Below are positions 4,908 to 58,556 of a DNA stretch of 64,000 nt, in pieces (the stretch's first letter is position 1; every line of letters starts with the position of its first letter). Where the stretch lies: the IMG/VR virus record IMGVR_UViG_3300028833_000155, positions 1,644 to 65,643 of that record, one strand, 5' to 3'. Origin of the DNA: a virus. The notes beneath the pieces are model-generated. The model was given only the letters and a program-made list of their open reading frames with translations. It had not been told where the DNA came from and made no database searches. The position numbers were made by a program, and so were the translations under genes.

Positions 4908-5237
4908 ATGAATAAAATATTTGATAAAGAATTTAGAGAAGCTCTAATGGACACATTAGAAGAAGCAGGAATTGAAGAAAATAAAGCAGTATCAATCGTT
5001 TCTTCCAGATACAAAGAAGCACTGAAACAAGTTGTAACAGACAGATTAGAACTAGTTGTTTCTCTAATTAAAGATGATAAATACAAGGAACTATCTGAGT
5101 TTTGTTCTTATAGTCCCGCTGGGGATTGTATGGGATGTGATAATGTCTATATTAATTTCTCCGATGCTTGTGATATAAAAGACATTGGAGATTTCATACA
5201 TACAATGGATAAAGATGTAAGTATGAAAGCATGGTGA
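4908..5237 (+). CDS. Hypothetical protein
   Basis: Upstream motif; YSPAGDCMGCDN segment. Confidence 0.7.
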   Translation: MNKIFDKEFREALMDTLEEAGIEENKAVSIVSSRYKEALKQVVTDRLELVVSLIKDDKYKELSEFCSYSPAGDCMGCDNVYINFSDACDIKDIGDFIHTMDKDVSMKAW

Positions 5238-5707
5238 CTATGACAATATCCCAAGGCTACAGAATGGCACAGACTGCATATCATAAGCAGCCTTACTTTG
5301 ACTATCCTTATATAGGTATTCTTGATGAGAATGAAAAAGAAGTAATAAACAGGTTAGAGAGTAATGTGTAAACTAAAATAAATAGAATTATGAAAGCTAG
5401 AGAAGTAGCAACAATCTTATACGCTTATATCGAAGCCTACCCGGATGTAGAACTAACCTTTGCAAACAATAAGGTTCCTGTCACCAAAATCATCTATGAT
5501 AAGAAAACAGATTCAATTAATTTGAGATAAAAAGTCTCTTCGTAAGACATCAAGGAGGAGTCACACAAGAAATGTTTTCTTTTCAATGCCATAAATAATG
5601 AGAATAAAGTGGCTCCTCCAAACTATTAGACTATAGGGAGAGTACCAAATGTGTTATAGTCTGAATGCAGGACAACCAATATAGTCCATATTAAATCTCT
5701 CCAACCT

Positions 5708-6286
5708 GTTCCCTTAGCTCAATTGGATAGAGCAACGGCCTTCTATGTAAATTGGATGCATAGGCGAGAAATCCCTATGTAGAATCTCCTAAATTCGGTG
5801 TAAATCCTTTACTTGCAAAGAAAAGTATAGTAGAAAAACATTAAGTAGTCCTAAACTGACTTCGTGGGCTTATAAGGATGAGAAAAGCAAGTAATACACA
5901 CTAACCAATAATGTGTAAGGACTATACCGAGCGAAAATGAGTGATTATGCCTTCAAATGCATGTCAAGATTGGGATAACAAGTTAACCTCATCAATCGTG
6001 TAGAGACTGAACGGGAGATACCTAAGTTGGAATTATACCTCATATACGTGTCCATAAGATTGTAAAAACAGTAAATGGGCAGCCATTTAATCGGAATGAG
6101 ACTTGCAAGAATTTCAATATGGTAAAGAAACAGTCCAGACCACAACAAACACAAGTCTTTAGGCAACCTCTCTAAGAGCAGCATAAGACTATAGAGGTAA
6201 TAGTGCAAGAATTCTAAAGTGTTTGGCTATGGTAACATAGAGTGGCAGGAAGCCGTAGGTTGTGGGTTCGAGTCCCACAGGGAACA
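5708..6286 (+). tRNA. tRNA-Arg(UCU) split by a group I intron; exons 5708-5744 and 6250-6286
   Basis: Joined exons fold into a cloverleaf: GTTCCCT/AGGGAAC acceptor, GCTC/GAGC D stem, ACGGC/GCCGT anticodon stem with loop CT-TCT-AA, GTGGG-TTCGAGT-CCCAC T arm; no encoded CCA. Confidence 0.9.
5745..6249 (+). mobile_element. Group I intron (505 nt, no ORF) in the tRNA anticodon loop after position 36
   Basis: 5' exon ends in U and the intron ends in G; P1 UCU/GGA(5754-5756) with U.G; P4 elements AAATTCGGTG(5791) and ATACCGAGC(~5924); P7 GACTG(6005)/CAGTC(6131). Confidence 0.88.
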
Positions 6287-6319
6287 CAACATTTTCATGT
6301 TATTTAAAGGGTTTGTTAT

Positions 6320-6364
6320 ATGGGGGAGTGGAAGGTAATAATGCCTTCTTCTCCCTCCATTTTT
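6320..6364 (+). terminator. Terminator downstream of tRNA-Arg(UCU)
   Basis: ATGGGGGAG..GAAGG/CCTTC..CTCCCTCCAT followed by TTTT. Confidence 0.6.
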
Positions 6365-6430
6365 ATAACTCTTTAAATAATCCATAGCATACAACTCATT
6401 TTATTATAAACCCTTTAATATAATGTTATT

Positions 6431-6685
6431 ATGACACCAAAAGATTTAGCAGTTCGGGACATCTATAATGACCTGAGTGAGCAGGGAAAGTCATTTCTTG
6501 CATTCCACAATGAACTCAACCCTGCAATAAGGAAGATAGTATCTTCCCAGATTAGGGAGCAAGTCAGTATCACTAACCCCTTCAATCTGCCTGTCAGACA
6601 TAAGTCTCAATTAATTGCAAGATGTTTTTTCTGCAAAGGTAATGTCCAATATGAAAACTATAATAAGTATTATGAGAATAAATAG
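6431..6685 (+). CDS. Hypothetical protein
   Basis: Upstream AACCCTTTAATA motif at -22. Confidence 0.55.
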   Translation: MTPKDLAVRDIYNDLSEQGKSFLAFHNELNPAIRKIVSSQIREQVSITNPFNLPVRHKSQLIARCFFCKGNVQYENYNKYYENK

Positions 6686-6811
6686 TTTCTATAAAAATCT
6701 ATTCCATAACCTCATGGAGAATCTACTTATCCTTATTGCAGGATTGGTATTTGCTATAGCTCTTCTTGCTACTATATGTGGTGATGGTAATAAAGGAATA
6801 GTCGACTTGCT

Positions 6812-7042
6812 ATGATTAGATACAGGGACCTTGTTCAGTACACCAAGGAGAATCATGTCAATTGGAATACAGACCTCTTTGATGTACTGAGAGGTTTCTT
6901 TGATTCCTATAGCCAGAAGTATTCATCACCTCTACCCTCTACAACTCCCATTCAGCAGGAACTTATCTTACCAAAGAAGTTCAAAGAGCCTGATAATAGA
7001 GAATATACTACCGAAGACCTAATTAATTTATTCTCAACATAA
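6812..7042 (+). CDS. Hypothetical protein
   Basis: ORF track; fits the gene-dense + strand. Confidence 0.55.
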   Translation: MIRYRDLVQYTKENHVNWNTDLFDVLRGFFDSYSQKYSSPLPSTTPIQQELILPKKFKEPDNREYTTEDLINLFST

Positions 7043-11096: not shown

Positions 11097-11169
11097 GCTC
11101 CCATAGCTCAATGGATAGTAGCCACAGTTTCCTAAACTGTAGATGAGTGTTCGATTCACTCTGGGAGTA
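11097..11169 (+). tRNA. tRNA-Arg(CCU)
   Basis: GCTCCCA/TGGGAGT acceptor, ACAGT/ACTGT anticodon stem, CCT at 11131-11133, GAGTG-TTCGATT-CACTC T arm; D stem slightly irregular; no CCA. Confidence 0.85.
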
Positions 11170-11300
11170 CAAGTGTATTAGTAGTTTGTTTTTATGTTAA
11201 TAGATTGTTTTTAGAGTGATGATAGAACAGAGGTTCTATTTACGTTGTTTTAGGTTTTTTGTATTAAAGAAACCATTCTCGTAGGTTTTTCAGTTTTTTT

Positions 11301-44891: not shown

Positions 44892-47800
44892 ATGGCAGCA
44901 CCAAGTTGTATTCCACATACGGTAAGTAGAAGATTTGCTACACAAGTAGTAGATAAGCTTTCTGATGAACAGAAAAATAAGTTTGGCATCACTGATGATG
45001 ATAGTAGAGACGATGCCATCGAAGCAATCAGAGCTTTGGCTGAGAGACATATCAATGCTGAGACTAATCCTGATAGGAAAGACCAGATGCTTCAGAATCC
45101 TGAAGGTTTTATTGCCGACTTAGAAAAGTATTTCTCTGTTGTTAGAGTGCCTGAAGATAACATTGAGGAGGCGCAAAAACAGTATAAATCTGTAAAATCC
45201 TTTTTAGAAGGACAAAATATGGGCAGATTAGTTACTTTCAAGTTTACAGAAGATAAAGAAGACCAAGAACAGGCTACAACAGCAGAAGCTTTTTTTCTGA
45301 GCTATAATCTCCTGTTTAAGGAAGGTGTAAGCCTTTTCAAGGAGTACTACCCTAATGGCAAAGTCAAGGCTATCAGTATTATTCTTATGGAACCTCAGAG
45401 GATGGATGGCAAAACAGCACAGGAAAATACCCTTGATACTATAAATGAAATTAAGAATTCATCACAGATAGAAATTTATAACACTTCTAAAAAAGGAGAA
45501 ACGATGCTTGTTTCTACCAAAGAAGAAATGCCTGAAGGGTGGAAGCCCACAGGCAGGTATCTGTATGATGGCAAGATGGTCAAAGCACAGGGTGTTACAA
45601 AAGACATTGATAATACTCCATATACAGGGTCAGTATTAGCAGGACCTATAGGAAATTCTGTTGATACAACAGGAAGGCTGTTCTTTAATAAGAATAGTGA
45701 ACTGTGGGAAAACGATGGACACCTTGTTAGTGATGAAGAGCTACAAGATATTATCAATACAAAGCTTGGAGGTATCTTTACTTTATCAGGACTGAAAAAT
45801 CTTATAAAAGACTTTGAGATTCTTGAAAAACAGCTTAAAGAAAAATGGGGAGAAGACGTTATAATCTTGTCTGATGAAATAAGAATGTTCGGACAAAAAC
45901 CTGAAGATGGTTCTTGGATAATAGGTTATCCTGACTTATTGGTTATAGATAAAAAAGGGGTAGTCCATACACTAGACTTCAAAACTTCTAAAATGTCCGA
46001 TATAAAAGGCTATGTGTATGTATTCCACGATGAAAAGGAGCAGAATTATCATACAGGTGAACACTATGGTAAGCAAATTTCACGATACATAAAAATGGAA
46101 GAGTCCTATGGATTACCTGTTGACTCAGAACCTTATGTAATATTAATTGATACATGGTACGATGCTTCTGACACAATAGAAAAAAGAGACAATGGTGCAA
46201 GGCCTTCCTATCAAACAGAAGGTACTATCGGATTTTTAAATGACACTGGTAGTCTCACAATGAGTTTGGGAGAATATGCAGCAGAAAACCCCATGACAAG
46301 AAAGGAACTATTGCTAGATGACACGGAAAAAGAAATCCTTTATATGGAACCTCGTCTCCATCTTAATATTACTGAGGAAGAAGGTACATATATTTATTCT
46401 GATGAGCTGGCAGCACTTAGAGGCAAGGAAGACATTCCTTTCGACTCTGAAGTAAGCTATGAGCAACAGTGGACTGCTTTATCTGAGGAGGAAAAAGAAG
46501 AACTCCAATGGCTTTTTAATGCTAAACCAGTGGTGTTTAGACCTGCACAAGGTATTGTAACACTGTCAGATGATGATATTGAAAGTAAGCCTTGGCTTAT
46601 TTCTCCCCAGGAGATTCAGGATGTTGCAGAGTTTATGATGTACAGAGTCTCTAGAATAATTACAGACCTTCAGAAAGGCAAGAGCTATAGTGAAATTCCC
46701 CTAAGTAATCCTAATGAAAATGGTTCTCCAAGTACAGTATTCTTGGGTAAAAACAGATCAGATATTATCCACATTGCAGGTATTGACAACCTGATTGATA
46801 TTGCTTTCAAGTATATCAAGATGGGATACAAAAATGACTTTCCTACAGAACAGCAGTATAAAGATGGTGACTATGACCAAGACGAAGACTTTGGATATTT
46901 CTTTAAAGATGAGGCAGATTTCCTGAACCAAAAAAGAATGAATGACAAAGCCAAGTGGCTTATTGACCACAAGGAACAGTTCATTATAGCAGGATATGCT
47001 AAACTAATGGCTCTGGAAAACTCTATCATCCCAAAGAGGAACGAGTCCAAGAACTTTAATTCTACAACACCTGATGTTCGTATGGAAGCAGATGACATGG
47101 AAGCTATAGGAGAAACAGGAGATGAAGAAAGCATCCAGTCTTTTGTTGATCTCTATCTGGAAGGTATTACTGATGTAGAAGCATGGATGCTCGGACAGAG
47201 AAACTATTCTCCAAAAGCTTCATTGGCACAGGAAATCAAGCGTATGTTTGAAGATATTGACATGGTGGATGCCAATGGTAAATTAGTGAAAGATCCCTAT
47301 GGTTGGGGATTCTCCTTGGCTTTAGATGCTACACAAGCAATTCAAACTGTCCTTGATACGTGTAAGTACTGTGAGACTATGGATGAAATGATGGTAGCTC
47401 TGAAAAACTTGGCGAGAAGTCCTCAGAACAACTGGGTTAATCAAGTCATCGACACTATTAACATGAAAGGCAATGAGAACCTAAAAAAGAAGTTCTTCCG
47501 TCACTTCCGCAAGGATGCCCTTAACTACAGTATTGCTCAAGTAAAATTTGATAAAAAGACTGGTAAAAGAGTCATTGAAACAAGAATTATAAATACAAAA
47601 TCTGCTTATGATACTATTAAACAGTCTTTAGGTGTAAGCTTCAGAAATGGTTCTGTAGGCAGTTATATCATTAATGGTGAAACATTCTCTGTTGTAGAAA
47701 GAGATGACAGTGGTAATAATATCCTAACTCGCCTAGGTAAAGGTACTGTAGCAAATCAGATTAGGAAGGATATAAAAACATGGAATAGCAGGCTTATACA

Positions 47801-50800
47801 AGTCTATAAAGATGGTAGGAATAGGCCAGAAGGACAGCGGATCTATGTTGCAGAGCAGCTACAAAAGCAGCAGTTTGATGGTAAAACCATCATTCAGGGA
47901 ATAACAGAAATCCTCAATGGTATAGGAATCAGAGTTCCCCAAGATGTTGTCTTGAACACATGCCTTCAAAAGCTTGCCGGAGGTGAAGGAAAAAGCAGTA
48001 ATGCAAGAAGGCTTCTAAATTTGTCTGAGGTTGTATTAGGCAAACTAGATGACATGAACACCAAGAAAAGTGGTATTCCAAGTGGCTTAAAAGGCAATGA
48101 CGCAGGTAGAGGATATTTTCCAATCCTTAAAATGGTGGCTGATTCAGTCCAAGAGTATGTAGAAGCCTCTGTTTATCAAGATGGAAAAACCTACTATTCC
48201 TATACTAATCCTTCCAGAATTGGATACATAGTCCGCGATCTGAAAGATTCCCTTGATGATACTGCTAAGTTTGAGAAATATATTCAAGACAACTTTGGCA
48301 GATATACAGGATGGTTTAAGACTGTAAATGGAGAAAGACAGAATCCTGAAGAACCTGGTTCTGAGTGGCTATGTGACTGGATAAGACAACTAGCTGACCC
48401 TGATAAAAGTGCTGCACGTCAGGCTCTTGAGCATAAAGTGGAGCTTTCCTACATCGGCAATCAGTATAGGAATTTAGGTGCTTTAGGTTTTCAATTATCT
48501 ATTCTTCACAACTATTTTGGTTCAAGGGATGACCAAGCTATTAACAAAGACTATCGTTGGTTTGCCCTTCCAACCATGTCAAACAAACCTACCAATGAGT
48601 TTATCCGCATGTTAAAGTATAAGAACTCTGAAGAAATTATTGACAGAGTTTTAATGAACACTTTCATACAGGAGATGAACCGTATGGCAGATGTACTATT
48701 CCACTATGCCAACTATGATGACAGTGTGGCAACAGACCAAATAGACTTGACTGACAAAAAGCTAATCAAAGCTGGCTGGACTGAAGAGGAAATTGAAGGT
48801 TTGAAGGAGAGGATTAATTCTCAGAATGTAACAGTCAATGACCTTATCAGACTTCAGAATGTAACTTCTGGTGCCAAGTTCCACTTCCTGTGGTATCTTA
48901 ACAATGATATTACAGGGAAGGACTTCCAAGACTTTGGTAGTCTGATAACTGAAAGGCTTAATATTCTTCTGACTCCAGAAGGAGATGCCAAGCAAGACAG
49001 ACTGAATACTTCTAATGAAGTAGATACCTTAGCTTTAGTTAGGCAGGTTATTTCTCAGCGCATGGATGAAATTGTGGAATCTGAACTAACCCACATGAAA
49101 AAGATAGGCTTGTTTGATACAGAGACTAAAAGAATTAATGGTAAGGAAGTCAAGGTTCTGAAGTATCAGGAAGAGTTTGATGATAAACTTGGCTCTGGCA
49201 GTAATGGCTATGACAATGCTGTCAAGGAAATGGAGAGTAAGCTGAGGGATTTCATCTGGCAGGACATAGCAGCTAATATTAACATCATTCAGATTACTGG
49301 AGGAGACCTAGCCTACTATGGTAATGCTGTGAACTATCAGAAGCGTATTGCTCAGATTCATTCTCCAGGTCTTAAGCTCATGCATGATGATGAGTATGAT
49401 GATGGTTATCTCCGTAGTGTTCATATCTCTGATGAGATGGTTAGAGATGAAACCAGACACAATACAGAAGTAGTACTAACTGAGTATATGGAGAATTCAG
49501 GACTGTCTGGTACAGTCAAGGAAGACTATAGAAAGATGATTTCTATCATTCTTGACGGTCTTACCAAGACTGAGTCTACTGATGGTCAGTCTTACTCTTC
49601 TCCCACTTCTATAAGAAAGAAGTTAGCTCTCCAGGGTGAATGGGATGATACCAAAGAAAAGGCCTATAAAGCCATTATCAAAGGTGATTTCAACATCAAT
49701 CATCTTGGTGTGATGCTTCAACCATCAAAGCCTTTTGTCACCTCTGACATGGCCAAGTACTCAGGTTCTACCACTATGGAGCTTCGCAAAACTCCTCTAC
49801 AAGATAAGAACTCTGAGTATCTTATCATCCTTGCTGAAGCCATTGCAAGAGGTTCTGGTAAAAGAAGTAAGCTTGTAGCTATCTGTGACTTTATGGAGAA
49901 GACTGCCAAGTTTGGCAATGGTAAGCAGGGCATTGATACTGTCCATTTTGCCTCTGTCAATAAGGTAGGAAAGTCTGGAATTATTGACATTGCAGCTTTT
50001 GACAAACAATTCAATGAGGACTTAAAAGATGGTATTGCTGATGAGGAAGATTACAATGAACTTCTTACAGAGTATCTGCTACGACATGTGCGGACTAAAG
50101 GTATGACAGGTGGAAGTATCCAAGAGCAAGATGACTTTGATGCTACTGAAAGATTAGTTCAGGAAGGTAAGCTGAAAAGAGAGGAAACTCTCTACAATGC
50201 TCAGTATGTAGATACTATTCCTTTGGATGACTATATCATTCAGCAGGAAGTGCCTGCACACCTGCTTGAACATCAACAGCTCTATGGTTCTCAGATAAGG
50301 ATTCTTGGTATCTCTGATATTACTCCTGGTACAGAATTTGATGTCAATTGGAAAAAGATGTCAGATAAAGAACTTGTTGATGAGTACAAAAATCTTCATG
50401 CTCAGAATATCAGAGAATCTTTTGATGACTTAATGGAGGAGTTAGGTCTTGACAAACTTTCTAAAAATGGTGAAGTCAAGCTTGAAACCATTGATGAATT
50501 ACCTACTGAAGACAGAAATCAGGTTTATAAAAATCTGGAATTTTTGCTTCAGAAAGAACTCTCCAAGGATGCCAAGTATGGTCTTGATATGCGTAGAGCA
50601 TGTGCTCTCCAGTATGATAGTAATGGTAACGTGATTGATTTTGCTGTACCTTTGATGGACCCAATTCAGTCAAGGAGAATACAGGAACTCATCAACTCTA
50701 TCATTAAGAAGAGCATTAACAAGCAAAGAATCACTGGTGGACCTGTAGTCCAGACTACTGCCTATGACAGAAATCTTCACATCCGATTCAAAGATAAAGA

Positions 50801-53800
50801 AGGCAATATCCTCCCAACACTGGAAGAATATGGTGGAGATGTCAAAGCATATAAGCAGTATCTCAAAGACAAGCAGGCAGGGATAGCATACTTTGAATGC
50901 TATATGCCTGTGCCTAATGCTACTCTGGAAAGACTTATAACCAAGGATGATGGTTCTATAATGTCTATAGAGGAAGTCCAACAAAAACTTCCTAAAGAGG
51001 TCTGGAAAGCTATGTCCGAGGTTATAGGCTACCGTATTCCTACTGAGGATAAGTATTCAATGCTTCCTCTGAAGATTATGGGCTTTGTACCAAAAGCTGC
51101 CGGTCAAGTTATTATGATGCCACAGGAAATCACTTACCTTACTGGTTCTGACTTTGATATTGATAAGATGTATATTATGATGAAATCTTTCAATGTATTC
51201 AAAGACAAACAAGATGAGAGGGAATTCCTGGCCATTGCACAGAAATATGCAAATGAGCACCTCGGAGAACCTCAGGCTCTTACTGTTGAGCAACTGAAAA
51301 AGTTTGTAAGACAAGTAATGCAGAATGGAGTAAAAATCATGGAAGGTGATACAATGACTTCTTGGACAACTGGAATTACAAGAGATAATCGTTTTGGGGC
51401 TGTAAAGAAATTCATTGATTGGTACAAAGATTATCTTCTTAAGGCAACATTCCACGAATATATCTATGATAAGGATGATATTCCTGAGAATAGAAGAGAG
51501 GCAAGAGAGGCAAGAAACAATAGACTCCTTGACCTACAATGGGCCGTCTTAACCAATGAGGATACTGCCTCCAAGATGCTGAACCCAGGTAACTTCAATG
51601 ACCAGAAGAAGGTTGGAAGAATTATCAGAATTCTGAAAGGTGGTATTATTAATCCTGAGACAGAAAGTCCTTGGACTTGGAAAGAACTCTCAGACATGGA
51701 CATTGATGACTTGGATGGATTGCTGGAGAATGCAGAGCAGCATAATACTACCCTGCCATCCAGCAAAATCTACTTCCAGCGTCAGAATATGCAGGGTTCT
51801 CAGATGGTAGGTATCTTTGCCAACCATAATGTCAGCCATGCATTCATGTCTTTCCAAAAGGTTGGTATAGACCTCCAGAAGGGACAGAATGATAATGCCT
51901 TTAGCTTTGATGGTATAATGATTGGTGATGCTGACAACCCAACTGTCCTTGATCCTCAAAAAGGATTTAATGGGCAACTTATCAGTAAGACCATAGCATC
52001 CTTCTTGGCTGCTTCTGTTGATACTGCCAAAGACCCTGTACTCTCTGACTTGAATGTCAACACCTTCACTGGAGGTGTGGCTATGGTACTGGCAAGACTT
52101 GGTTTTGACACAGCATCTATTGGACTGTTTCTCTCTCAGCCTGTCATCATGCAACTCTCTGACCTTTATTTCAAGAACAGCACAGATGGTTTTTACAAAG
52201 GTGATACTGCCATTGAGGAGCTGGCTTCCATGTTGGGAATGAAGAAGAAGGATTTGCAGAGCACAGAAGGTATTAAGGATGGTACACTCAGCAAAGAGAA
52301 CTTTGTGGAGCATCTGAATGATACTGACTATGATGGAGAAGAAGACAACTTCCAGAAGAGGGTTCTTCAAGGTTTCTACAGGCTCTATCAGATAGCGCAT
52401 GACCTGTCAGAATTAACTTTCTGTACAAAGTTCAACTCTGTATCCAATGCTGTAGGCCCGACTATTGCTGATACAATGGAAGACCTTGACAGAGTAGATA
52501 AGTTCACAAGTTCGGAGAATGCTGAAAAGAATGTATTCTATATTCCTGACAGTGATAATGACCCTATGGGATTCACTGACCCTGCTGAAATTATTTCCAA
52601 TGACCCAATACTCAGTGCTTTCTTTGAGACTACTGTTGGTCACGATGGTGCTTCAGAAAAGATATTCAGGAATTTCTTCCCGCATTATTTTGCAGGGTTC
52701 CAGAATGTAAGACAGTATTTCAAGGATAACTTCCTTGGTGGTAAGAAACTGAACAGCAAGCTATATAACCAGCTGCTCAACGAGTATCTATATTATCTGA
52801 TGACCTATCAGGATGACAATTACAGTCCCACTATACCTGCAAGAGATCCTGATCCTAAACAAGAATTTAGACATTTAGACCGACTAATTAAAGGGCTTAT
52901 TACAGATTTCCAAGCCATACTGAAGATTAAAGGCAGAAGGCCTAATATGATTCTTGACCAAGGTCTTGGCAATAACTGTCTGAGAGTACGCAGTGCTGAT
53001 GAGTTCCTTGCTGTGGATACTTTGATATTCAACAACTCTCAGCTTAATGCAGATGGTCAACAGAAGATTAGAAATGCATGGAGTGACCTCATTACTATGG
53101 ATGACCCCAATCTTTCAAAAGAAGATAATGAAAGAATCCGTGGATTTGGTATTGACTTATTCTTCTACAACCTAATGAGGAACGGCTTTACTTTTAGTCC
53201 GAAGACCATGATGCCTTTAGCCTCTGTCGTAGTAAGATACAATGCCAATTATAATGAAAAGAAAGGCTTCCAAAACTATATTGTAGGTTTAAGGAATTTG
53301 AAAGACTTGGACAACTTCTTAATGAATGGCTCTGATAATATGTCTGCAATCAGACAGTTCTGTAATCAGTTTGTAAGAAACCATGCAAACAACAGGCAGC
53401 TGGTTCCAAGCATAGATTTTCAGGACAAAACATTACTTTCTGTTGACTCTGAAACAGGAGACATTGAATTTGGAGCACCTGTAGAGGAAGAATATAAGCT
53501 ATCTCGTATAATGCTTGGAGACTCTAATCCCTATGAGTTTATTACAGTTATCAGGAAGAATGGTAATAGTCTGACCCAAGAACTGTATGAACTGGTAGAG
53601 GTTGGAGGTGAAAAACAATTCACAGAAGCTGGAATGACCAAGGTAAGGTACAGAAAGTCCAACAGGCTTGGTCTTACCAACAATTTCATTGAGTATGATG
53701 CCAACAGCAGCATTGAAACCTCATACTTTGAAGACATCCGCAGTAACTCTGCTGATGATATGGATGAGGAAATAACTACTGAAGGACAGAGCAAGGATGA

Positions 53801-54101
53801 GCAGGAACAGTCAGCTGGTAATTCTACTCCTTCCGATGGAAGTGAAGCTGAAAGGTCTTTCACATATAAGTGGAATACTTTTATCTTACCTGTAATCAGG
53901 AACTTAAAAGGTTCTCAGGCAGGAAAAGAAGGTGCTAAGTATAGAGTAGCCTTGAAACATGCACTGGAAAAAGCTGATGATAACTCTGAATTTGCAAAAG
54001 CCTTCAATGCAATGTTGGAAGCTGAACAAGAAAACAGGCAGGGACTGATGGATAAGATTAATGAAATTTTTAAGAATCAAAATAGTTGTTTTAAAGGATA
54101 A
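44892..54101 (+). CDS. crAss-like single-chain virion RNA polymerase with N-terminal PD-(D/E)xK domain
   Basis: 3069 aa; catalytic GSDFDIDK (51150-51164), GYRIPT, TDGQSY; N-terminal GYPDLLVID...LDFKT. Confidence 0.9.
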   Translation: MAAPSCIPHTVSRRFATQVVDKLSDEQKNKFGITDDDSRDDAIEAIRALAERHINAETNPDRKDQMLQNPEGFIADLEKYFSVVRVPEDNIEEAQKQYKSVKSFLEGQNMGRLVTFKFTEDKEDQEQATTAEAFFLSYNLLFKEGVSLFKEYYPNGKVKAISIILMEPQRMDGKTAQENTLDTINEIKNSSQIEIYNTSKKGETMLVSTKEEMPEGWKPTGRYLYDGKMVKAQGVTKDIDNTPYTGSVLAGPIGNSVDTTGRLFFNKNSELWENDGHLVSDEELQDIINTKLGGIFTLSGLKNLIKDFEILEKQLKEKWGEDVIILSDEIRMFGQKPEDGSWIIGYPDLLVIDKKGVVHTLDFKTSKMSDIKGYVYVFHDEKEQNYHTGEHYGKQISRYIKMEESYGLPVDSEPYVILIDTWYDASDTIEKRDNGARPSYQTEGTIGFLNDTGSLTMSLGEYAAENPMTRKELLLDDTEKEILYMEPRLHLNITEEEGTYIYSDELAALRGKEDIPFDSEVSYEQQWTALSEEEKEELQWLFNAKPVVFRPAQGIVTLSDDDIESKPWLISPQEIQDVAEFMMYRVSRIITDLQKGKSYSEIPLSNPNENGSPSTVFLGKNRSDIIHIAGIDNLIDIAFKYIKMGYKNDFPTEQQYKDGDYDQDEDFGYFFKDEADFLNQKRMNDKAKWLIDHKEQFIIAGYAKLMALENSIIPKRNESKNFNSTTPDVRMEADDMEAIGETGDEESIQSFVDLYLEGITDVEAWMLGQRNYSPKASLAQEIKRMFEDIDMVDANGKLVKDPYGWGFSLALDATQAIQTVLDTCKYCETMDEMMVALKNLARSPQNNWVNQVIDTINMKGNENLKKKFFRHFRKDALNYSIAQVKFDKKTGKRVIETRIINTKSAYDTIKQSLGVSFRNGSVGSYIINGETFSVVERDDSGNNILTRLGKGTVANQIRKDIKTWNSRLIQVYKDGRNRPEGQRIYVAEQLQKQQFDGKTIIQGITEILNGIGIRVPQDVVLNTCLQKLAGGEGKSSNARRLLNLSEVVLGKLDDMNTKKSGIPSGLKGNDAGRGYFPILKMVADSVQEYVEASVYQDGKTYYSYTNPSRIGYIVRDLKDSLDDTAKFEKYIQDNFGRYTGWFKTVNGERQNPEEPGSEWLCDWIRQLADPDKSAARQALEHKVELSYIGNQYRNLGALGFQLSILHNYFGSRDDQAINKDYRWFALPTMSNKPTNEFIRMLKYKNSEEIIDRVLMNTFIQEMNRMADVLFHYANYDDSVATDQIDLTDKKLIKAGWTEEEIEGLKERINSQNVTVNDLIRLQNVTSGAKFHFLWYLNNDITGKDFQDFGSLITERLNILLTPEGDAKQDRLNTSNEVDTLALVRQVISQRMDEIVESELTHMKKIGLFDTETKRINGKEVKVLKYQEEFDDKLGSGSNGYDNAVKEMESKLRDFIWQDIAANINIIQITGGDLAYYGNAVNYQKRIAQIHSPGLKLMHDDEYDDGYLRSVHISDEMVRDETRHNTEVVLTEYMENSGLSGTVKEDYRKMISIILDGLTKTESTDGQSYSSPTSIRKKLALQGEWDDTKEKAYKAIIKGDFNINHLGVMLQPSKPFVTSDMAKYSGSTTMELRKTPLQDKNSEYLIILAEAIARGSGKRSKLVAICDFMEKTAKFGNGKQGIDTVHFASVNKVGKSGIIDIAAFDKQFNEDLKDGIADEEDYNELLTEYLLRHVRTKGMTGGSIQEQDDFDATERLVQEGKLKREETLYNAQYVDTIPLDDYIIQQEVPAHLLEHQQLYGSQIRILGISDITPGTEFDVNWKKMSDKELVDEYKNLHAQNIRESFDDLMEELGLDKLSKNGEVKLETIDELPTEDRNQVYKNLEFLLQKELSKDAKYGLDMRRACALQYDSNGNVIDFAVPLMDPIQSRRIQELINSIIKKSINKQRITGGPVVQTTAYDRNLHIRFKDKEGNILPTLEEYGGDVKAYKQYLKDKQAGIAYFECYMPVPNATLERLITKDDGSIMSIEEVQQKLPKEVWKAMSEVIGYRIPTEDKYSMLPLKIMGFVPKAAGQVIMMPQEITYLTGSDFDIDKMYIMMKSFNVFKDKQDEREFLAIAQKYANEHLGEPQALTVEQLKKFVRQVMQNGVKIMEGDTMTSWTTGITRDNRFGAVKKFIDWYKDYLLKATFHEYIYDKDDIPENRREAREARNNRLLDLQWAVLTNEDTASKMLNPGNFNDQKKVGRIIRILKGGIINPETESPWTWKELSDMDIDDLDGLLENAEQHNTTLPSSKIYFQRQNMQGSQMVGIFANHNVSHAFMSFQKVGIDLQKGQNDNAFSFDGIMIGDADNPTVLDPQKGFNGQLISKTIASFLAASVDTAKDPVLSDLNVNTFTGGVAMVLARLGFDTASIGLFLSQPVIMQLSDLYFKNSTDGFYKGDTAIEELASMLGMKKKDLQSTEGIKDGTLSKENFVEHLNDTDYDGEEDNFQKRVLQGFYRLYQIAHDLSELTFCTKFNSVSNAVGPTIADTMEDLDRVDKFTSSENAEKNVFYIPDSDNDPMGFTDPAEIISNDPILSAFFETTVGHDGASEKIFRNFFPHYFAGFQNVRQYFKDNFLGGKKLNSKLYNQLLNEYLYYLMTYQDDNYSPTIPARDPDPKQEFRHLDRLIKGLITDFQAILKIKGRRPNMILDQGLGNNCLRVRSADEFLAVDTLIFNNSQLNADGQQKIRNAWSDLITMDDPNLSKEDNERIRGFGIDLFFYNLMRNGFTFSPKTMMPLASVVVRYNANYNEKKGFQNYIVGLRNLKDLDNFLMNGSDNMSAIRQFCNQFVRNHANNRQLVPSIDFQDKTLLSVDSETGDIEFGAPVEEEYKLSRIMLGDSNPYEFITVIRKNGNSLTQELYELVEVGGEKQFTEAGMTKVRYRKSNRLGLTNNFIEYDANSSIETSYFEDIRSNSADDMDEEITTEGQSKDEQEQSAGNSTPSDGSEAERSFTYKWNTFILPVIRNLKGSQAGKEGAKYRVALKHALEKADDNSEFAKAFNAMLEAEQENRQGLMDKINEIFKNQNSCFKG

Positions 54102-54104
54102 TAT

Positions 54105-57100
54105 ATGGCAAATTCATGTAGGTTATCTCCCGTAGTATTCAAAAGGAATGGGAAAGAGATTGAAGAAAAGGATAGCAGGCTGTTCAAGGACATCAAGAAG
54201 GCAGTAAAGGACAATGATACTGCCTGGAAGATGTGGGCATATACAAAGACTCCTGAGTTCAAGGCTGAGTACAAGAATAATGTTGACTATGATGAGTTAG
54301 GGGAAGTAACATTCCCCTCTCTCATCAAAGCCTTGGGTCTTCAGGAAGTATATGACACCCAAAAAGATGCTGACGAAGCAGCAAGGGACTATGGCTTTAC
54401 AGACACTGTATTTGAGAATGCAGAGTCTGCTGTTAGTAAGATGAACCTTTTCAACTCCAAGGAACAGAAATTCATAGCCTCCACGCACAAGGTTGATGGT
54501 GGTTATGAGATTAATGTGTCCCCAAGAAATGCTCAGACCATTCAGGCAGCAAGAACACAGTCGTATAATAATGCCCTGACTGGTGAGATTATTGATCTTC
54601 TAAGGTCTATGGGATTCAATGTGGAATGGGTTTCCAATCCAAGGTATGATGGACTCTTCAATCCAGAAGAAGCTGCTCTCCATGACGGGCTTATTAGCAT
54701 TATCAACATTGCAAAAGGACAGAGAGGTGAAGAGGCACTTCCAGAAGAGTTCAGTCACCTAATGATTGAAGGTCTGATTAACCATCCTTTGGCTCAAAGA
54801 CTTCTTAACACTCTGAATGATACTCAGATTCAGGAAATTCTTGGAGACAGCTATGATAAATACTCTCAGATGTATGATGGAGATAGTCTTAAGCTAAAGA
54901 AAGAAGCTGCTGGTAAACTCCTTGCACAGTATATCACTGGTCAGGGAACTATCAGCCAACCTGTCATCCAACCAAAGAGACCATTGCTTTCAAGAATATG
55001 GAGCTGGGTAAAGAACCTGTTCTCCAGAGTCAGCAATGAGCAGCTGGCTCAGGCAAGACTGAATGCACATGAGGCTGTTGAAGGAATCTATAATATTATA
55101 TCTTCTGGGGAAGCAGTACCTTTAGTAGATAAAAGGAGCATCCTTAATGCAGAACAATTGTATAAGCTCCGTGAGGAGTATAACAGTCTGGAAAAAGTAG
55201 CTACCAAAGGTGAAGAGATTGTCGCTAGAATGCTCAGGTCCGAAAGAGCTAAAGGAAACAAAGACAGGGCACAGAATGCTACCAAGGTTATTCAGAAAAT
55301 GAGGGATACTTTTGGTAGGCAAGAAGGGCTGGAAGTAGGTGACCCTTATGAATCTGTCAGAATATTTCTTGGAGATGCTGTACGACAGATAGAAATTATC
55401 TCTAAAGATATGCGTAGAGCCAACAGAAATGAAGAGGGAGGATTAATGACTGATATAAAAGTTATCAATGAAATTGCCAAGGTTGCAAGGGAAATTGATA
55501 CTTTTGTAGAGGGATATGCAGATGTCATCAGTGCTATAGCTACTTTTGATGAAGAGTCCAATACTACAGAACTGGGCATTGATGAACAATCAGGAAAAGT
55601 CTTAGCCAATACTGCCAATGACTGTTTGAAGGCCCTAAACAAGCTTACAGACTGGAAACAAGCTACTGAGAGAAATATTCTCTACAATGCCTCAAGAACT
55701 GTCTATAAAGAGGATAGAACAAGAGACATAGGTAGTAAAAGGGAAGAGGTAATGTCACTCAATGAAATTCTAGACCATGCTGACAGGGATATTAACTTTG
55801 TGGACAGATGGCTCTCTGCTATGAGTGATGCTGACGATGCTATGTTAACTATTTTTGACCAGATAGTAAAGAATCAGCAGTATGAACGTGATATGGAGAT
55901 GATTGAATGGAATGCTAAGATTGCAGCAATTGACAAGAAACTCCGTGATGCAGGTTATTCTTCTGACTTCATGTATGAACTAGACAAGGATGGAGTTCCT
56001 ACAGGCAGACTTATTAGCCAGTATGATTGGGAAGGATATAATGAGGCATATAGAAAGAAAAAAGAAGAGCTTGAAGATAACTGGGAACACTTTTCAGATC
56101 GGAAAAAAGAAAGTCTTGAAAACAATAAACAAAAGTACATTAGAGAAGGACTGAGCAAATGGAAACGTAGTGCAGATGCGAATAATAATTCAAGACTGAT
56201 TGAGGTATTTGTAGACCCAGAAGTCAATGCCTATGCAAATGAACATGGCATTAAAAAGGCACAAAATGTATATCCAGAAGCTATATTTGAAATGGTCCCT
56301 AATCCTAAAGTATTTACTAAAAATGCAGACAGAATAGAAAAACTGGCTTCTGCACAGAGGGAATACTATGAGGAGATGATGAATCTCAAGAGAACTATGA
56401 TGACCAAGATTCCTCATAGGGGACAGGGTATCTATAAGGCAGTCAACATCAGCAAGGATATGGTTGAGGGGATACTTGACAATAGTACAGGCAATCCTCT
56501 GAAAGCTACTCTTGAAAACTACAAAAAGAAGTTCCTTCGCAGACCTGATGACATTGGCTTTGGTACAGGGGAGAACTACAAGGAGGACATCCGTAATATC
56601 ATAGAGAGTGAGAAAGATCCTGAGCAGGCAGCAGAGAGAATTCTAATGTATCTTAATGATGCTACAGATGAGGATATTCTTGCAGTAGTTGACATAAGGA
56701 AAATCAGAAGGATTATCAGCAAGAACAAGGATGACATCAATAAAACTACTGAGGATGTACTGGAAGCAATTGCCTCAGAAAATTTTGCTATTGTGGAAAC
56801 AGACTTTGCGAATCACAGGATACAGCGTCTGCCTATCTACTATACAAGACCACTGAAAGACAAGAAAATGCTGTCTACAGACTTCTCAGGCACTATAGTA
56901 GCATATTCTGCTATGGCTGTCAACTATGAAAAGATGAATCAGGTAGTTGACATCTTGGAGGTAGGAAGAAGTTATATCAGAGAAAGGTCTGTCTTGGAGA
57001 ATGAAGGCCAGCACTCTGTCATGTCAAGGTTCACCGCCCTTGGAAAGATATATAAGGCTTATGTGGAAAGGGCTGGTAATGGAACCAACATAGCAGGCAG

Positions 57101-58556
57101 AATTGATGACTATATGGATTCTGTAGTCTATGAAGAAAGAAAAAATGATGAAGGTTCAATAGAGCTACTTGGAGTTAATCTTGATACAGCCAAGACACTG
57201 GATGCCATCAAAGACTATACAGGCTTGTTAGGACTTGGATTCAATGTGTTCTCAACCATCTCAAACCTTGCTGTAGGTAAACTTCAGCAATGGATTGAAG
57301 CTGCTGGTGGAGAGTACTTCACCTTCAAGGATTATGCAAAGGCTGTTACCCAATATAGTACCCTGATGCCTGGTTGCTTGGCTGAGATGAACTCTCCTGT
57401 AAAGAAAAACAAGTTAAGTCTGCTGATTCAGATGTTTGACCCAATGGGTGATTACTACGAATCTCTTAGAGATCCAAGCTTTAGCAAGAGTGCTGTATCA
57501 AGAATCCTTGGTAATGGTGTGCTTGCATATATTGGCATGAATGCTGGTGAGCATATCCTGCACTGCCAGACTATGCTGGCCATTCTCAACAATGTCAAGC
57601 TAACTGATACCAAGACTGGGGAAAAGATTAGCCTATATGATGCTTTGGAAGTCAAGGAGGTCAATGGTATTACCAAACTGGTACTCAAAGAAGGACTTTC
57701 CTATGAAAGAGAGCGGATTGATAATACTGGTAATGCAAAAACTAATAAGAATTATGGTAGACCTGTTAGGGATGAGGACGGTAAGATAAAGACTGAACAA
57801 GTTATACTTAAAGACCTCAAAGACAATACCACTCAAAGGTATATCATGCGTCAGAAAAGAAAAGTCCGCAAGATAAATGACTCTCTTAATGGTGCATTTT
57901 CTGCCAATGACAAGGGTGCTATTCATAAGAAAGCAATAGGCAGGTTAGTCATGCAGTTCCGTCAATGGATGCCTGCACATTATATGCGAAGATTTGCAAG
58001 AGCACATTATGATGCAGACCTTGAACAATGGAGGGAAGGCTATTATACTACTGTAGTTAAGACACTCAGCCAAATGTGGAAGGAGTCAATAAAGGCCAAA
58101 ACGATGACACTTAAATACTATAATGTACTTAGTGAGCATGAGAAGGCCAACCTTAGAAGAGCTACTGCGGAAGTATCAGAGTTCTTGATACTCATGGTAC
58201 TGGTGAGACTTGGAGGCAGGGTCAAGGATAGAGACAGAAGCTGGCTTGACAAGATGGCTCTCTACCAAATCAGACGTATGCATCTTGAAGTAGGAGCATC
58301 AATGCCTGTCAATGAGGGGTTCTTCAGTAACATTTTCACCCTGCTTCAGTCTCCTGCTGCTTCTATCAACACCTTTGAGAAAATAAGCAAGGTTATTCAG
58401 TTCTGGAACGCCTTTGATGAGATTCAGACTGGTAGATACCAAGGATGGTCAGAGTGGCAGAGAGATTTATACCTAAGTGTTCCTGCATTTGGACAAATTA
58501 GAAAAGCAATAGATTTTGACGATAGTATGTTCTCTGTCTTTGAGCAGAATGACTAA
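54105..58556 (+). CDS. Large virion cargo/ejection protein
   Basis: 1483 aa immediately after RNAP; zincin-like LPEEFSH; C-terminal GRLVMQFRQW; role inferred from crAss-like gene order. Confidence 0.7.
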   Translation: MANSCRLSPVVFKRNGKEIEEKDSRLFKDIKKAVKDNDTAWKMWAYTKTPEFKAEYKNNVDYDELGEVTFPSLIKALGLQEVYDTQKDADEAARDYGFTDTVFENAESAVSKMNLFNSKEQKFIASTHKVDGGYEINVSPRNAQTIQAARTQSYNNALTGEIIDLLRSMGFNVEWVSNPRYDGLFNPEEAALHDGLISIINIAKGQRGEEALPEEFSHLMIEGLINHPLAQRLLNTLNDTQIQEILGDSYDKYSQMYDGDSLKLKKEAAGKLLAQYITGQGTISQPVIQPKRPLLSRIWSWVKNLFSRVSNEQLAQARLNAHEAVEGIYNIISSGEAVPLVDKRSILNAEQLYKLREEYNSLEKVATKGEEIVARMLRSERAKGNKDRAQNATKVIQKMRDTFGRQEGLEVGDPYESVRIFLGDAVRQIEIISKDMRRANRNEEGGLMTDIKVINEIAKVAREIDTFVEGYADVISAIATFDEESNTTELGIDEQSGKVLANTANDCLKALNKLTDWKQATERNILYNASRTVYKEDRTRDIGSKREEVMSLNEILDHADRDINFVDRWLSAMSDADDAMLTIFDQIVKNQQYERDMEMIEWNAKIAAIDKKLRDAGYSSDFMYELDKDGVPTGRLISQYDWEGYNEAYRKKKEELEDNWEHFSDRKKESLENNKQKYIREGLSKWKRSADANNNSRLIEVFVDPEVNAYANEHGIKKAQNVYPEAIFEMVPNPKVFTKNADRIEKLASAQREYYEEMMNLKRTMMTKIPHRGQGIYKAVNISKDMVEGILDNSTGNPLKATLENYKKKFLRRPDDIGFGTGENYKEDIRNIIESEKDPEQAAERILMYLNDATDEDILAVVDIRKIRRIISKNKDDINKTTEDVLEAIASENFAIVETDFANHRIQRLPIYYTRPLKDKKMLSTDFSGTIVAYSAMAVNYEKMNQVVDILEVGRSYIRERSVLENEGQHSVMSRFTALGKIYKAYVERAGNGTNIAGRIDDYMDSVVYEERKNDEGSIELLGVNLDTAKTLDAIKDYTGLLGLGFNVFSTISNLAVGKLQQWIEAAGGEYFTFKDYAKAVTQYSTLMPGCLAEMNSPVKKNKLSLLIQMFDPMGDYYESLRDPSFSKSAVSRILGNGVLAYIGMNAGEHILHCQTMLAILNNVKLTDTKTGEKISLYDALEVKEVNGITKLVLKEGLSYERERIDNTGNAKTNKNYGRPVRDEDGKIKTEQVILKDLKDNTTQRYIMRQKRKVRKINDSLNGAFSANDKGAIHKKAIGRLVMQFRQWMPAHYMRRFARAHYDADLEQWREGYYTTVVKTLSQMWKESIKAKTMTLKYYNVLSEHEKANLRRATAEVSEFLILMVLVRLGGRVKDRDRSWLDKMALYQIRRMHLEVGASMPVNEGFFSNIFTLLQSPAASINTFEKISKVIQFWNAFDEIQTGRYQGWSEWQRDLYLSVPAFGQIRKAIDFDDSMFSVFEQND

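Follow-up and report, generated by a model that had tools for sequence, protein, structure and literature searches.

Group I introns were reportedly described in 1992 by Reinhold-Hurek and Shub in the anticodon loops of two bacterial tRNAs, tRNA-Ile(CAU) of Azoarcus and tRNA-Arg(CCU) of Agrobacterium. Bacterial tRNA introns of this IC3 type are small, ∼200-250 nt, and in Azoarcus and Agrobacterium they lie 3' of the anticodon. A larger relative carried by a phage is the subject of this analysis. It is found in a 64-kb stretch of DNA (the window, 64,000 nt) taken from a 65.6-kb IMG/VR record, IMGVR_UViG_3300028833_000155, with a CheckV completeness of 62. Positions 5708-6286 of the window very probably constitute a gene for tRNA-Arg(UCU) that a 505-nt group I intron splits between tRNA positions 36 and 37. 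The intron is assigned to the tRNA (IC3-like) type, has no open reading frame (ORF) and is most simply seen as a selfish element which the phage tolerates. The gene and all parts of the intron are on the plus strand of the window.

The window intron shares several features with the introns of Azoarcus and Agrobacterium. It is inserted right after the anticodon, has no ORF, has a U·G pair at its 5' end and a G at its terminus, and contains the same sequence block from J6/7 through P7 and J7/3 to the 3' strand of P3 (P, paired region; J, joining segment). A GAAA loop on P2 and the sequences CCUAAG/UAUGG in P8 are further motifs which we take to be common to both. It differs in its length (505 nt against ∼200-250 nt), in its tRNA-Arg(UCU) host, in being phage-borne and in falling below the Rfam threshold. 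The core also resembles that of the cyanobacterial or plastid-type intron of tRNA-Leu(UAA), whose P1, CUU paired with GAG, recurs in those members of the long intron family described below that reside in Leu genes or at 34/35 in Arg genes. The Leu(UAA) intron, however, lies at 34/35 and its copies are mostly short, whereas the window intron lies at 36/37. The Azoarcus pre-tRNA is the subject of a cryo-electron microscopy study from 2026 (PMC13168695).

Classical phage group I introns belong to the same ribozyme class but interrupt ORFs and often carry homing endonuclease genes, whereas the window intron is ORF-less and interrupts a tRNA gene. According to a 2014 review, all phage group I introns then known were in protein-coding genes, despite the many tRNA genes of phages (PMC3984707). 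The 2018 preprint on the Lak megaphages by Devoto et al. (10.1101/356790) describes 'enigmatic' introns in tRNAs, which it leaves unclassified, and states that none had earlier been reported in phages. Like the window intron, these are located in tRNA genes of large gut phages. Some of them include tRNA-like pieces, a feature also seen in several introns of the present family.

Individual examples can be recognized in sequenced phages. Introns in tRNA-Leu(UAA) genes are present in Agrobacterium phage Atu_ph07 (278 nt) and in the uncultured huge phages LR756501 (205 nt) and LR756511 (700 nt). The tRNA-Leu(TAA) gene of Atu_ph07 (MF403008; L208:953-1314) is unannotated, and a coding sequence for a 'hypothetical protein', AUZ94936.1, overlaps it. 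In Microcoleus phage My-WqHQDG (OR578706; L214:802-1087), a 286-nt 'tRNA-Arg' is a tRNA-Arg(CCU) gene with a 213-nt intron right after the anticodon. That intron is like the window intron in its phage tRNA-Arg host, its lack of an ORF, its position directly 3' of the anticodon and its P7 strands, GGACUG/CAGUCC; it is unlike it in its anticodon and its much smaller size, and the record shows just a long tRNA. Short introns of 205-211 nt in IMG/VR phage contigs (L016, L034, L071, L076 and L065) share both the tRNA-Arg(UCU) identity and the phage context, but they are at 34/35 (CUU|CUAA), have the guide GAG and lack expansions of P5, P6, P8 and P9. A full-text literature search, with most subscription journals outside its reach, found no paper that assigns introns of phage tRNAs to group I, nor any report of one in tRNA-Arg(UCU). 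Both the host gene and the type of genome are barely documented for such an intron.

The gene is recovered when a tRNA finder is permitted to accept introns. ARAGORN with option -i calls tRNA-Arg(tct) at 5708-6287 with a 505-nt intron, 5745-6249, right 3' of the anticodon (cttct|intron|aagcc). Once this segment is taken out, the exons 5708-5744 and 6250-6286 form a flawless cloverleaf with an acceptor stem of 7 bp, a D stem of 4 bp, and anticodon and T stems of 5 bp each, with standard pairs throughout. The 5' exon provides the 5' strand of the acceptor stem, the D arm, the 5' strand of the anticodon stem and the loop bases CUUCU, with the anticodon UCU at 5742-5744. The 3' exon provides the loop bases AA, the 3' strand of the anticodon stem, the variable loop, the T arm, the 3' strand of the acceptor stem and the discriminator A. 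Both assignments rely on the ARAGORN call and the helices and, for the 5' exon, on intron-less alleles as well. The original prediction, made from the letters of the window alone, had proposed this cloverleaf, this excision and this use of ARAGORN, and also that standard tRNA finders may miss the gene; each of these points is borne out. In default mode ARAGORN calls only a second tRNA gene in the window, the intron-less tRNA-Arg(CCU) at 11097-11170, which is also the single tRNA found there by Rfam at its gathering threshold. Comparison of region 5000-7000 with GenBank phages by blastn gave nothing beyond a 35-nt tRNA-Arg match. As standard tRNA finders and Rfam miss such genes, phage tRNA repertoires are under-counted; for annotation, the window phage is to be credited with a decoder of AGA as well as one of AGG.

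The 5' exon ends with T5744 and the intron with G6249. As A is the first base of both the intron and the 3' exon, the boundary could formally be shifted by one base. The limits 5745-6249 were chosen because they follow the group I rule, with U before the intron and G at its end, and because of covariation in the guide sequence. Intron-less alleles, a search for which had been proposed at the outset, are plentiful. Among the matches listed for the 20-mer 5725-5744, 119 of 120 viral loci have the uninterrupted junction CTTCT|AAGCCGT, where AAGCCGT is the start of the window 3' exon, and chance adjacency of two tRNA halves is thereby excluded. The one exception in that set (L100, minus strand, ∼2390) has an anticodon arm that continues AAGCTCGACTTAGAAGGCGT, a short extra stretch relative to AAGCCGT.

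The precise splice sites are indicated by the way in which the intron is fitted to its exons. In P1 (5742-5756), exon UCU and A5745 (5742-5745, UCUA) pair with U5753-G5754-G5755-A5756 (UGGA), the guide triplet being GGA (5754-5756) and U5744·G5754 the wobble pair at the 5' splice site. U5752-U5753 are able to pair with A6250-A6251 of the 3' exon to give P10. The U and G boundaries, the U·G pair of P1 and the UU of P10 had all been noticed in the original prediction and stand as described. In the 11 copies of the intron whose anticodon arm could be resolved, the guide triplet invariably pairs with the three final bases of the exon, and the pair at the splice site is always U·G. The combination is UCU/GGA in two copies (the window and Arg(UCU) of L002), CAU/GUG in one (L020, Met or Ile) and CUU/GAG in eight (five Leu(UAA), Ser(UGA) of L002, and Arg(UCU) at 34/35 in L009 and L048). 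The two bases 5' of the guide follow the 3' exon in turn, UU with AA or GA and AG with CU. A guide which tracks the exon, together with a P10 guide, is the signature of P1/P10 and thus places the splice sites at 5744|5745 and 6249|6250. Readable 3' ends in the family are GUGG(C/U)A(A/U/G)G, with L017 and the free-standing copies as deviants. Guide triplets that track their host anticodon loops form a natural data set on target-site change in group I introns.

The script used for this comparison resolved 11 copies and printed 10 further alternative stem solutions, none of which is a cloverleaf; in ten copies the 3' motif was missing or a contig end truncated the copy. Two copies left unresolved by the script were read by eye as CAU/GUG (L003, with one mismatch in the anticodon stem) and CUU/GAG (L082). 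L017 and its near-copies L219 and L221, which are Thr-like and have the triplet CUC, the guide GAG and an irregular 3' end, were left out of the splice-site count. The family uses two sites within tRNA-Arg(UCU). It is at 36/37 in the window and L002, and at 34/35 (CUU|CUAA) in L048 and L040, contigs related to the window phage; the short, Rfam-passing Arg(UCU) introns of L016 and L065 are also at 34/35. The copies in L048 (197-788) and L040 (12473-13028) have GAG or AAG as guide, AG as P10 guide and an extra hairpin on P1.

The interior of the intron can be assigned helix by helix. P2 (5757-5781; covariation and minimum free energy (MFE) folding) is a 10-bp hairpin with a bulged C5765 and a GAAA tetraloop at 5768-5771, and is paired in 100% of cells of a 19-sequence family alignment (A1). 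The 5' strand of P3, AUCUCCU (5784-5790), has as its partner GGGAGAU (6013-6019), as judged by comparison with short tRNA introns in a second alignment (A2, described below). The 5' strand of P4, UUCGGU (5794-5799), is partnered by 5926-5931 (covariation tests in A1 and A2). P5 (5805-5809/5917-5921) surrounds an enlarged domain, 5805-5921, that includes the conserved hairpin P5c at 5898-5916 (alignment, covariation and MFE). P6 (5937-5992; covariation) has the strands AUGAG/CUCAU and is expanded between them. The 5' strand of P7, G[A]GACUG (6003-6009), has a bulged A6004 and pairs with CAGUCC (6131-6136), G6003 with C6136 before the bulge and G6005 with C6135 as the first of five further pairs (helices and A2). 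P7 is presumed to be the guanosine-binding helix, pseudoknotted with P3. P8 (6021-6122; helices, A1 and A2) consists of CC/GG (6021-6022/6121-6122) and UUGGAAUU/AAUUUCAA (6027-6034/6110-6117), with CCUAAG and UAUGG on either side of an internal loop, an arrangement that resembles what we take to be the 11-nt tetraloop receptor. The P9 domain (6140-6245; alignment and MFE) comprises P9 itself, CCAC/GUGG (6140-6143/6242-6245), P9a, CAAACAC/GUGUUUG (6146-6152/6219-6225; covariation and MFE), and P9b, a hairpin at 6227-6240 with a GUAA loop (MFE). The intron closes with the terminal guanosine, omega-G, at 6249, identified from the sequence and the readable family 3' ends. The layout of P7, and a receptor-like P8 that faces the GAAA loop of P2, presumably match the fold of Azoarcus-type IC3 introns.

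The intron owes its roughly doubled size to variable domains inserted in P5 (5810-5897, 88 nt), P6 (5942-5987, 46 nt), P8 (6035-6109, 75 nt) and P9 (6153-6218, 66 nt, enclosed by P9a). Without these four insertions the core amounts to ∼230 nt, and this is how long tRNA group I introns ordinarily are. Peripheral insertion as the source of the extra length, the P4 and P7 elements and the absence of an ORF were all anticipated correctly. Within the intron there is no plus-strand ORF of at least 30 aa, a minus-strand ORF of 87 aa (5945-6208) has no Pfam match, and the insert has no terminal repeats.

Its alignment with known examples identifies the insert as a tRNA-type (IC3-like) group I intron, enlarged about two-fold. 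It is collinear with short phage introns across P2, P3, J3/4, P4, P5, P4', P6, J6/7, P7, P3', P8, P7' and P9, and five of seven such short introns pass the gathering threshold of the Rfam group I model RF00028 (L016 Arg, 62.6; L016 Leu, 70.2; L065 Arg, 55.0; L026 Leu, 54.9; L013 Leu, 51.0), those of L047 and L021 being below it. The short introns examined here are compact, ∼190-310 nt, without large peripheral domains. The window intron at 505 nt fails to share this IC3 trait, and is therefore classed as an enlarged variant and an untypical member of the subgroup.

Covariation provides the main support for the helices. With the helices mapped from the window copy on to A1, 96.3% of 1509 cells are standard pairs, compared with 32-45% when the partner strand is slid by 1-3 columns. 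Both sides have changed in 41 of the 89 pairs, and 0 of 500 shuffles match any of these measures. Such two-sided changes are found in 6 of 10 pairs of P2, 2 of 4 of P5c, 4 of 5 of P6 (in which the window and L050 are shifted by one column in A1) and all 7 of P9a, with two pairs in P8 and one each in P5 and P9b. The window copy itself has standard pairs at all 89 modelled positions. A2 contains 22 sequences, 5 long and 17 short introns, including three from GenBank phages; the test did not cover P9 and P9b, whose columns in the long introns are shifted by one relative to the short ones. Here P3, P4, P7 and the proximal part of P8 are 98.5% paired, compared with 28-53% when slid. Changes on both sides occur in 12 of 21 pairs, among them 6 of 7 in P3 and 4 of 6 in P4, the closing pair of P7 is found as U-A, A-U and G-C, and no shuffle out of 500 is as good. 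Folded by MFE without constraints, 5708-6286 reaches -143.6 kcal/mol (z = -2.4), a stability that none of 100 shuffles equals, and the predicted structure contains all four tRNA arms, P2 capped by GAAA, P3, P4, P5, P8 and the three-way junction of P9.

The intron is far from unique, and its singularity was overstated in the original prediction; as well as the GenBank phage examples and the Lak preprint mentioned earlier, relatives are numerous in IMG/VR. A 16-nt motif over P7, J7/3 and P3' (window 6002-6017), with two positions degenerate, has 86 matches in IMG/VR, 35 of them inside intron-bearing tRNA genes on the same strand as called by ARAGORN -i. Introns of these 35 genes measure 187-776 nt, and the tRNAs are called as Arg, Leu, Met, Thr, Ser, Gln, Tyr and tca/tta, with wrong ARAGORN boundaries in some. 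Six are called Arg(tct), and three more become Arg(UCU) after boundary re-reading. In GenBank phages the same motif also matches ordinary introns, which split genes for capsid, primase and tail proteins. Self-splicing introns thus seem to be common in tRNA genes of large uncultivated phages.

A narrower group can be defined by overall similarity. In blastn comparisons the window intron is similar over nearly its full length to ∼20 other introns of ∼450-780 nt, the closest being that of tRNA-Arg(UCU) in L002, at the same site and with 71% identity over 628 columns. A family-invariant 20-mer (5780-5799) is found in 26 copies in 24 IMG/VR stretches, on contigs of 5.7-361 kb, many of them >100 kb, and the hosts in these phage contigs are Arg, Met/Ile, Leu, Ser and Thr tRNA genes. 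Judged by these similarities, the window intron belongs to a family of at least 27 copies. None of 185,579 prokaryote species genomes contains an exact copy of the 20-mer. Likewise, blastn of the intron against 50,697 GenBank phage records gave no family member, only a 36-nt match to the primase intron of a crAss-like phage. In A1 the core blocks are near-invariant and four regions are free in both length and sequence, and every column that is invariant across the family is kept in the window copy. The modules are mosaic: the P5 and P9 insertions of the window are common to L002, and its P8 insertion is almost exactly that of L082. On the available sequences, then, the family is phage-restricted, ∼450-780 nt long, with a near-invariant core, swapped peripheral modules and a guide re-tuned to the hosting anticodon loop. 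It represents one family that has doubled in size while its core has remained almost invariant.

Some copies are outside tRNA genes (L041:641-1855, L014:11556-12056, L050:10936-11371 and L220, ∼930), and in L041 two such copies flank an intact tRNA-Arg(TCT). They end in GTGGTAA(A/T) without a terminal G, the 3' strand of their P7 is altered to CAGTCA or CAGTTA, and they have in common a TTCTTTGAAAA motif upstream. These copies may be free-standing ribozymes derived from group I introns in the tRNA arrays of huge phages. A separate observation concerns hairpins that resemble T arms (GGTTCGAnTCC with complementary flanks) in the variable domains of L011 (P6), L042, L003 and L041 (P9) and L045 (P5); none is present in the window copy. 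They recall the 'tRNA within an intron' mentioned for Lak phages in the preprint (10.1101/356790).

A broader proposal is that the ∼500-nt introns are a phage-specific and still mobile ribozyme lineage, which moves from one anticodon loop to another as its 3-nt guide and P10 guide are adapted, for instance by reverse splicing. This proposal is tentative, and we would put it at clearly less than an even chance. It takes in the two sites used in one tRNA-Arg(UCU), exchange of modules by recombination and the free-standing derivatives that lack omega-G. As part of it, the excised RNA could have a role of its own, given the heavy representation in rumen RNA libraries and the circle-like joints seen there.

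Parts of the window occur in 24 public sequencing runs, all labelled as animal gut and six of them recorded as RNA; runs with shares of 0.14-0.2 (bovine and other gut) were not used to assign a habitat. Three RNA runs and one DNA run (X1) were compared, all as assembled contigs. Contigs that match window-specific parts demonstrate the presence of the sequence in RNA libraries rather than its splicing. Record 27 of X6 is identical to 6000-6197 over 198 nt, records 21 and 22 of X4 are identical to 6000-6070 and 6041-6163, and record 20 of X4 covers 5802-5922 with 2 differences. Many of the joints listed skip exactly the four variable regions, as expected of contigs from related introns. The flanks (5400-5686 and 6302-6600) have a summed depth of 0-3.9 in the three RNA runs compared with 6-15.6 in X1, and the conserved intron blocks a summed contig depth of 10^3-10^4. 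As contig depth sums over all related introns, it is no measure of expression, and nothing firm is drawn from it. X4 also contains three head-to-tail joints, from 6245, 6249 and 6251 back to 5748-5749, with 3-11 other letters between, which indicates that they come from relatives.

Several of these results weigh against the interpretation of the locus as a working group I intron. The window scores only 14.8 bits with RF00028 against a gathering threshold of 50 (E = 0.43; 5733-6144, model positions 1-253), and no long member of the family reaches that threshold, the shortfall of the window being due to ∼275 nt of insertions in four helices that break the model. Testing with a group I model, as initially advised, therefore failed with the window itself and succeeded with five of its seven short homologues. 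P3, P4, P7 and P9 are invariant inside the long family, so support for these helices has to come from the short-intron comparison. Among the joints listed in contigs of the RNA runs (15 of 72), the exon-exon joint (5744 to 6250) is absent. The head-to-tail joints, no more than a hint of ribozyme activity, could be circularized excised introns of relatives or tandem DNA. The RNA data are metatranscriptome contigs, which can include DNA and which sum over many related introns.

Nevertheless, self-splicing is strongly indicated. In the mechanism we propose by homology, the precursor would be transcribed and the tRNA arms would fold alongside a ribozyme core of P1-P9 with its P3/P7 pseudoknot, the GAAA loop of L2 probably docking on the receptor-like P8. 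Free guanosine bound in P7 would attack after U5744, the base that the guide GGA holds in P1, and the exon 3' OH thus freed would then attack after G6249. Joining of the exons would give a normal 75-nt tRNA reading AGA. Among 684 arginine codons in the 61 crude ORFs of the window, AGA accounts for 52% and AGG for 27%, and the intron-less tRNA-Arg(CCU), together with tRNA-Arg(UCU), reads these 79%. Because AGA is the commonest arginine codon of the phage, the interrupted tRNA is probably useful to it, and this speaks for an intron that splices. The intron itself is most simply regarded as a selfish but tolerated element. A tolerated mobile element fits the presence of one family in tRNAs of at least five anticodons, its mosaic modules and the predominance of intron-less alleles.

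The alternative that fares best is a regulatory or protective device, in which splicing would gate AGA decoding or the interrupted loop would shield the tRNA from host anticodon nucleases, as the original prediction had suggested. We consider this improbable, and neither form of the suggestion found support. The supply of a tRNA could matter in a phage with so high a share of AGA and AGG, and intron sequences are abundant in RNA-library contigs, but nothing that would sense a ligand or act as a switch was identified in the ribozyme core, which looks constitutive. Shielding would be limited to the precursor, as the spliced tRNA has an ordinary anticodon loop, exposed like any other. The retention of the family in many phage tRNA genes with a near-invariant core is in favour of a function, yet these tRNAs carry at least five anticodons and other copies are outside tRNA genes, which a mobile element fits better than a device tailored to Arg(UCU). 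Moreover, nearly all of the listed viral loci with an identical anticodon arm are intron-less.

That the intron is instead a decayed, non-splicing relic in a tRNA pseudogene appears very unlikely, about half as probable as the regulatory or protective device. The score under the Rfam gathering threshold and a J6/7 one base longer than in most family members could be taken as signs of decay, but the modelled pairs are standard without exception, the family-invariant columns are all retained, and the exons give a cloverleaf free of defects. The guide triplet and P10 guide fit the exon context of the window, unlike those of the 34/35 Arg(UCU) copies in related phages. The missing spliced product among the RNA-contig joints listed would also suit a relic, whereas the same libraries contain contigs identical to the window copy. 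An interruption of another kind (a group II intron, a transposable element, a protein-spliced tRNA intron of the bulge-helix-bulge type, or chance proximity of two tRNA halves) has a negligible probability, although no search was aimed at a bulge-helix-bulge motif, which the group I features make unnecessary: ARAGORN does report any insert in an anticodon loop whatever its nature, but helix-for-helix alignment with Rfam-passing group I introns, the lack of any other Rfam family above noise on the insert in E-value mode, the lack of an ORF or terminal repeats and guide covariation specific to group I chemistry already contradict it.

A scan for promoters and terminators around the gene found nothing convincing: promoter-like sites numbered 2, where 4.7 were expected, and there were 0 terminators. 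Just 3' of the tRNA, at 6295-6386, lies an inverted repeat, GC-rich but imperfect, with a T-run after it. It was not called by the terminator scan and has only weak, chance-level Rfam matches to miRNA families; it may be a terminator.

The window as a whole is a phage replication module. Its genes, almost all of those listed being on the plus strand, include DNA helicases, a primase, a Sak4-like annealing protein, RIIA, an exonuclease, an anaerobic ribonucleotide reductase, a family A DNA polymerase and a thymidylate synthase. Two giant plus-strand ORFs follow one another at 44892-54101 (3069 aa) and 54105-58556 (1483 aa), and the 1483-aa protein has no PHROG match. The related IMG/VR contigs L048, L040, L042 and L017 have 67-81% nucleotide identity to the window over several replication genes; for L048 and L040 the identity is 67-73% over the helicase, the primase and other genes.

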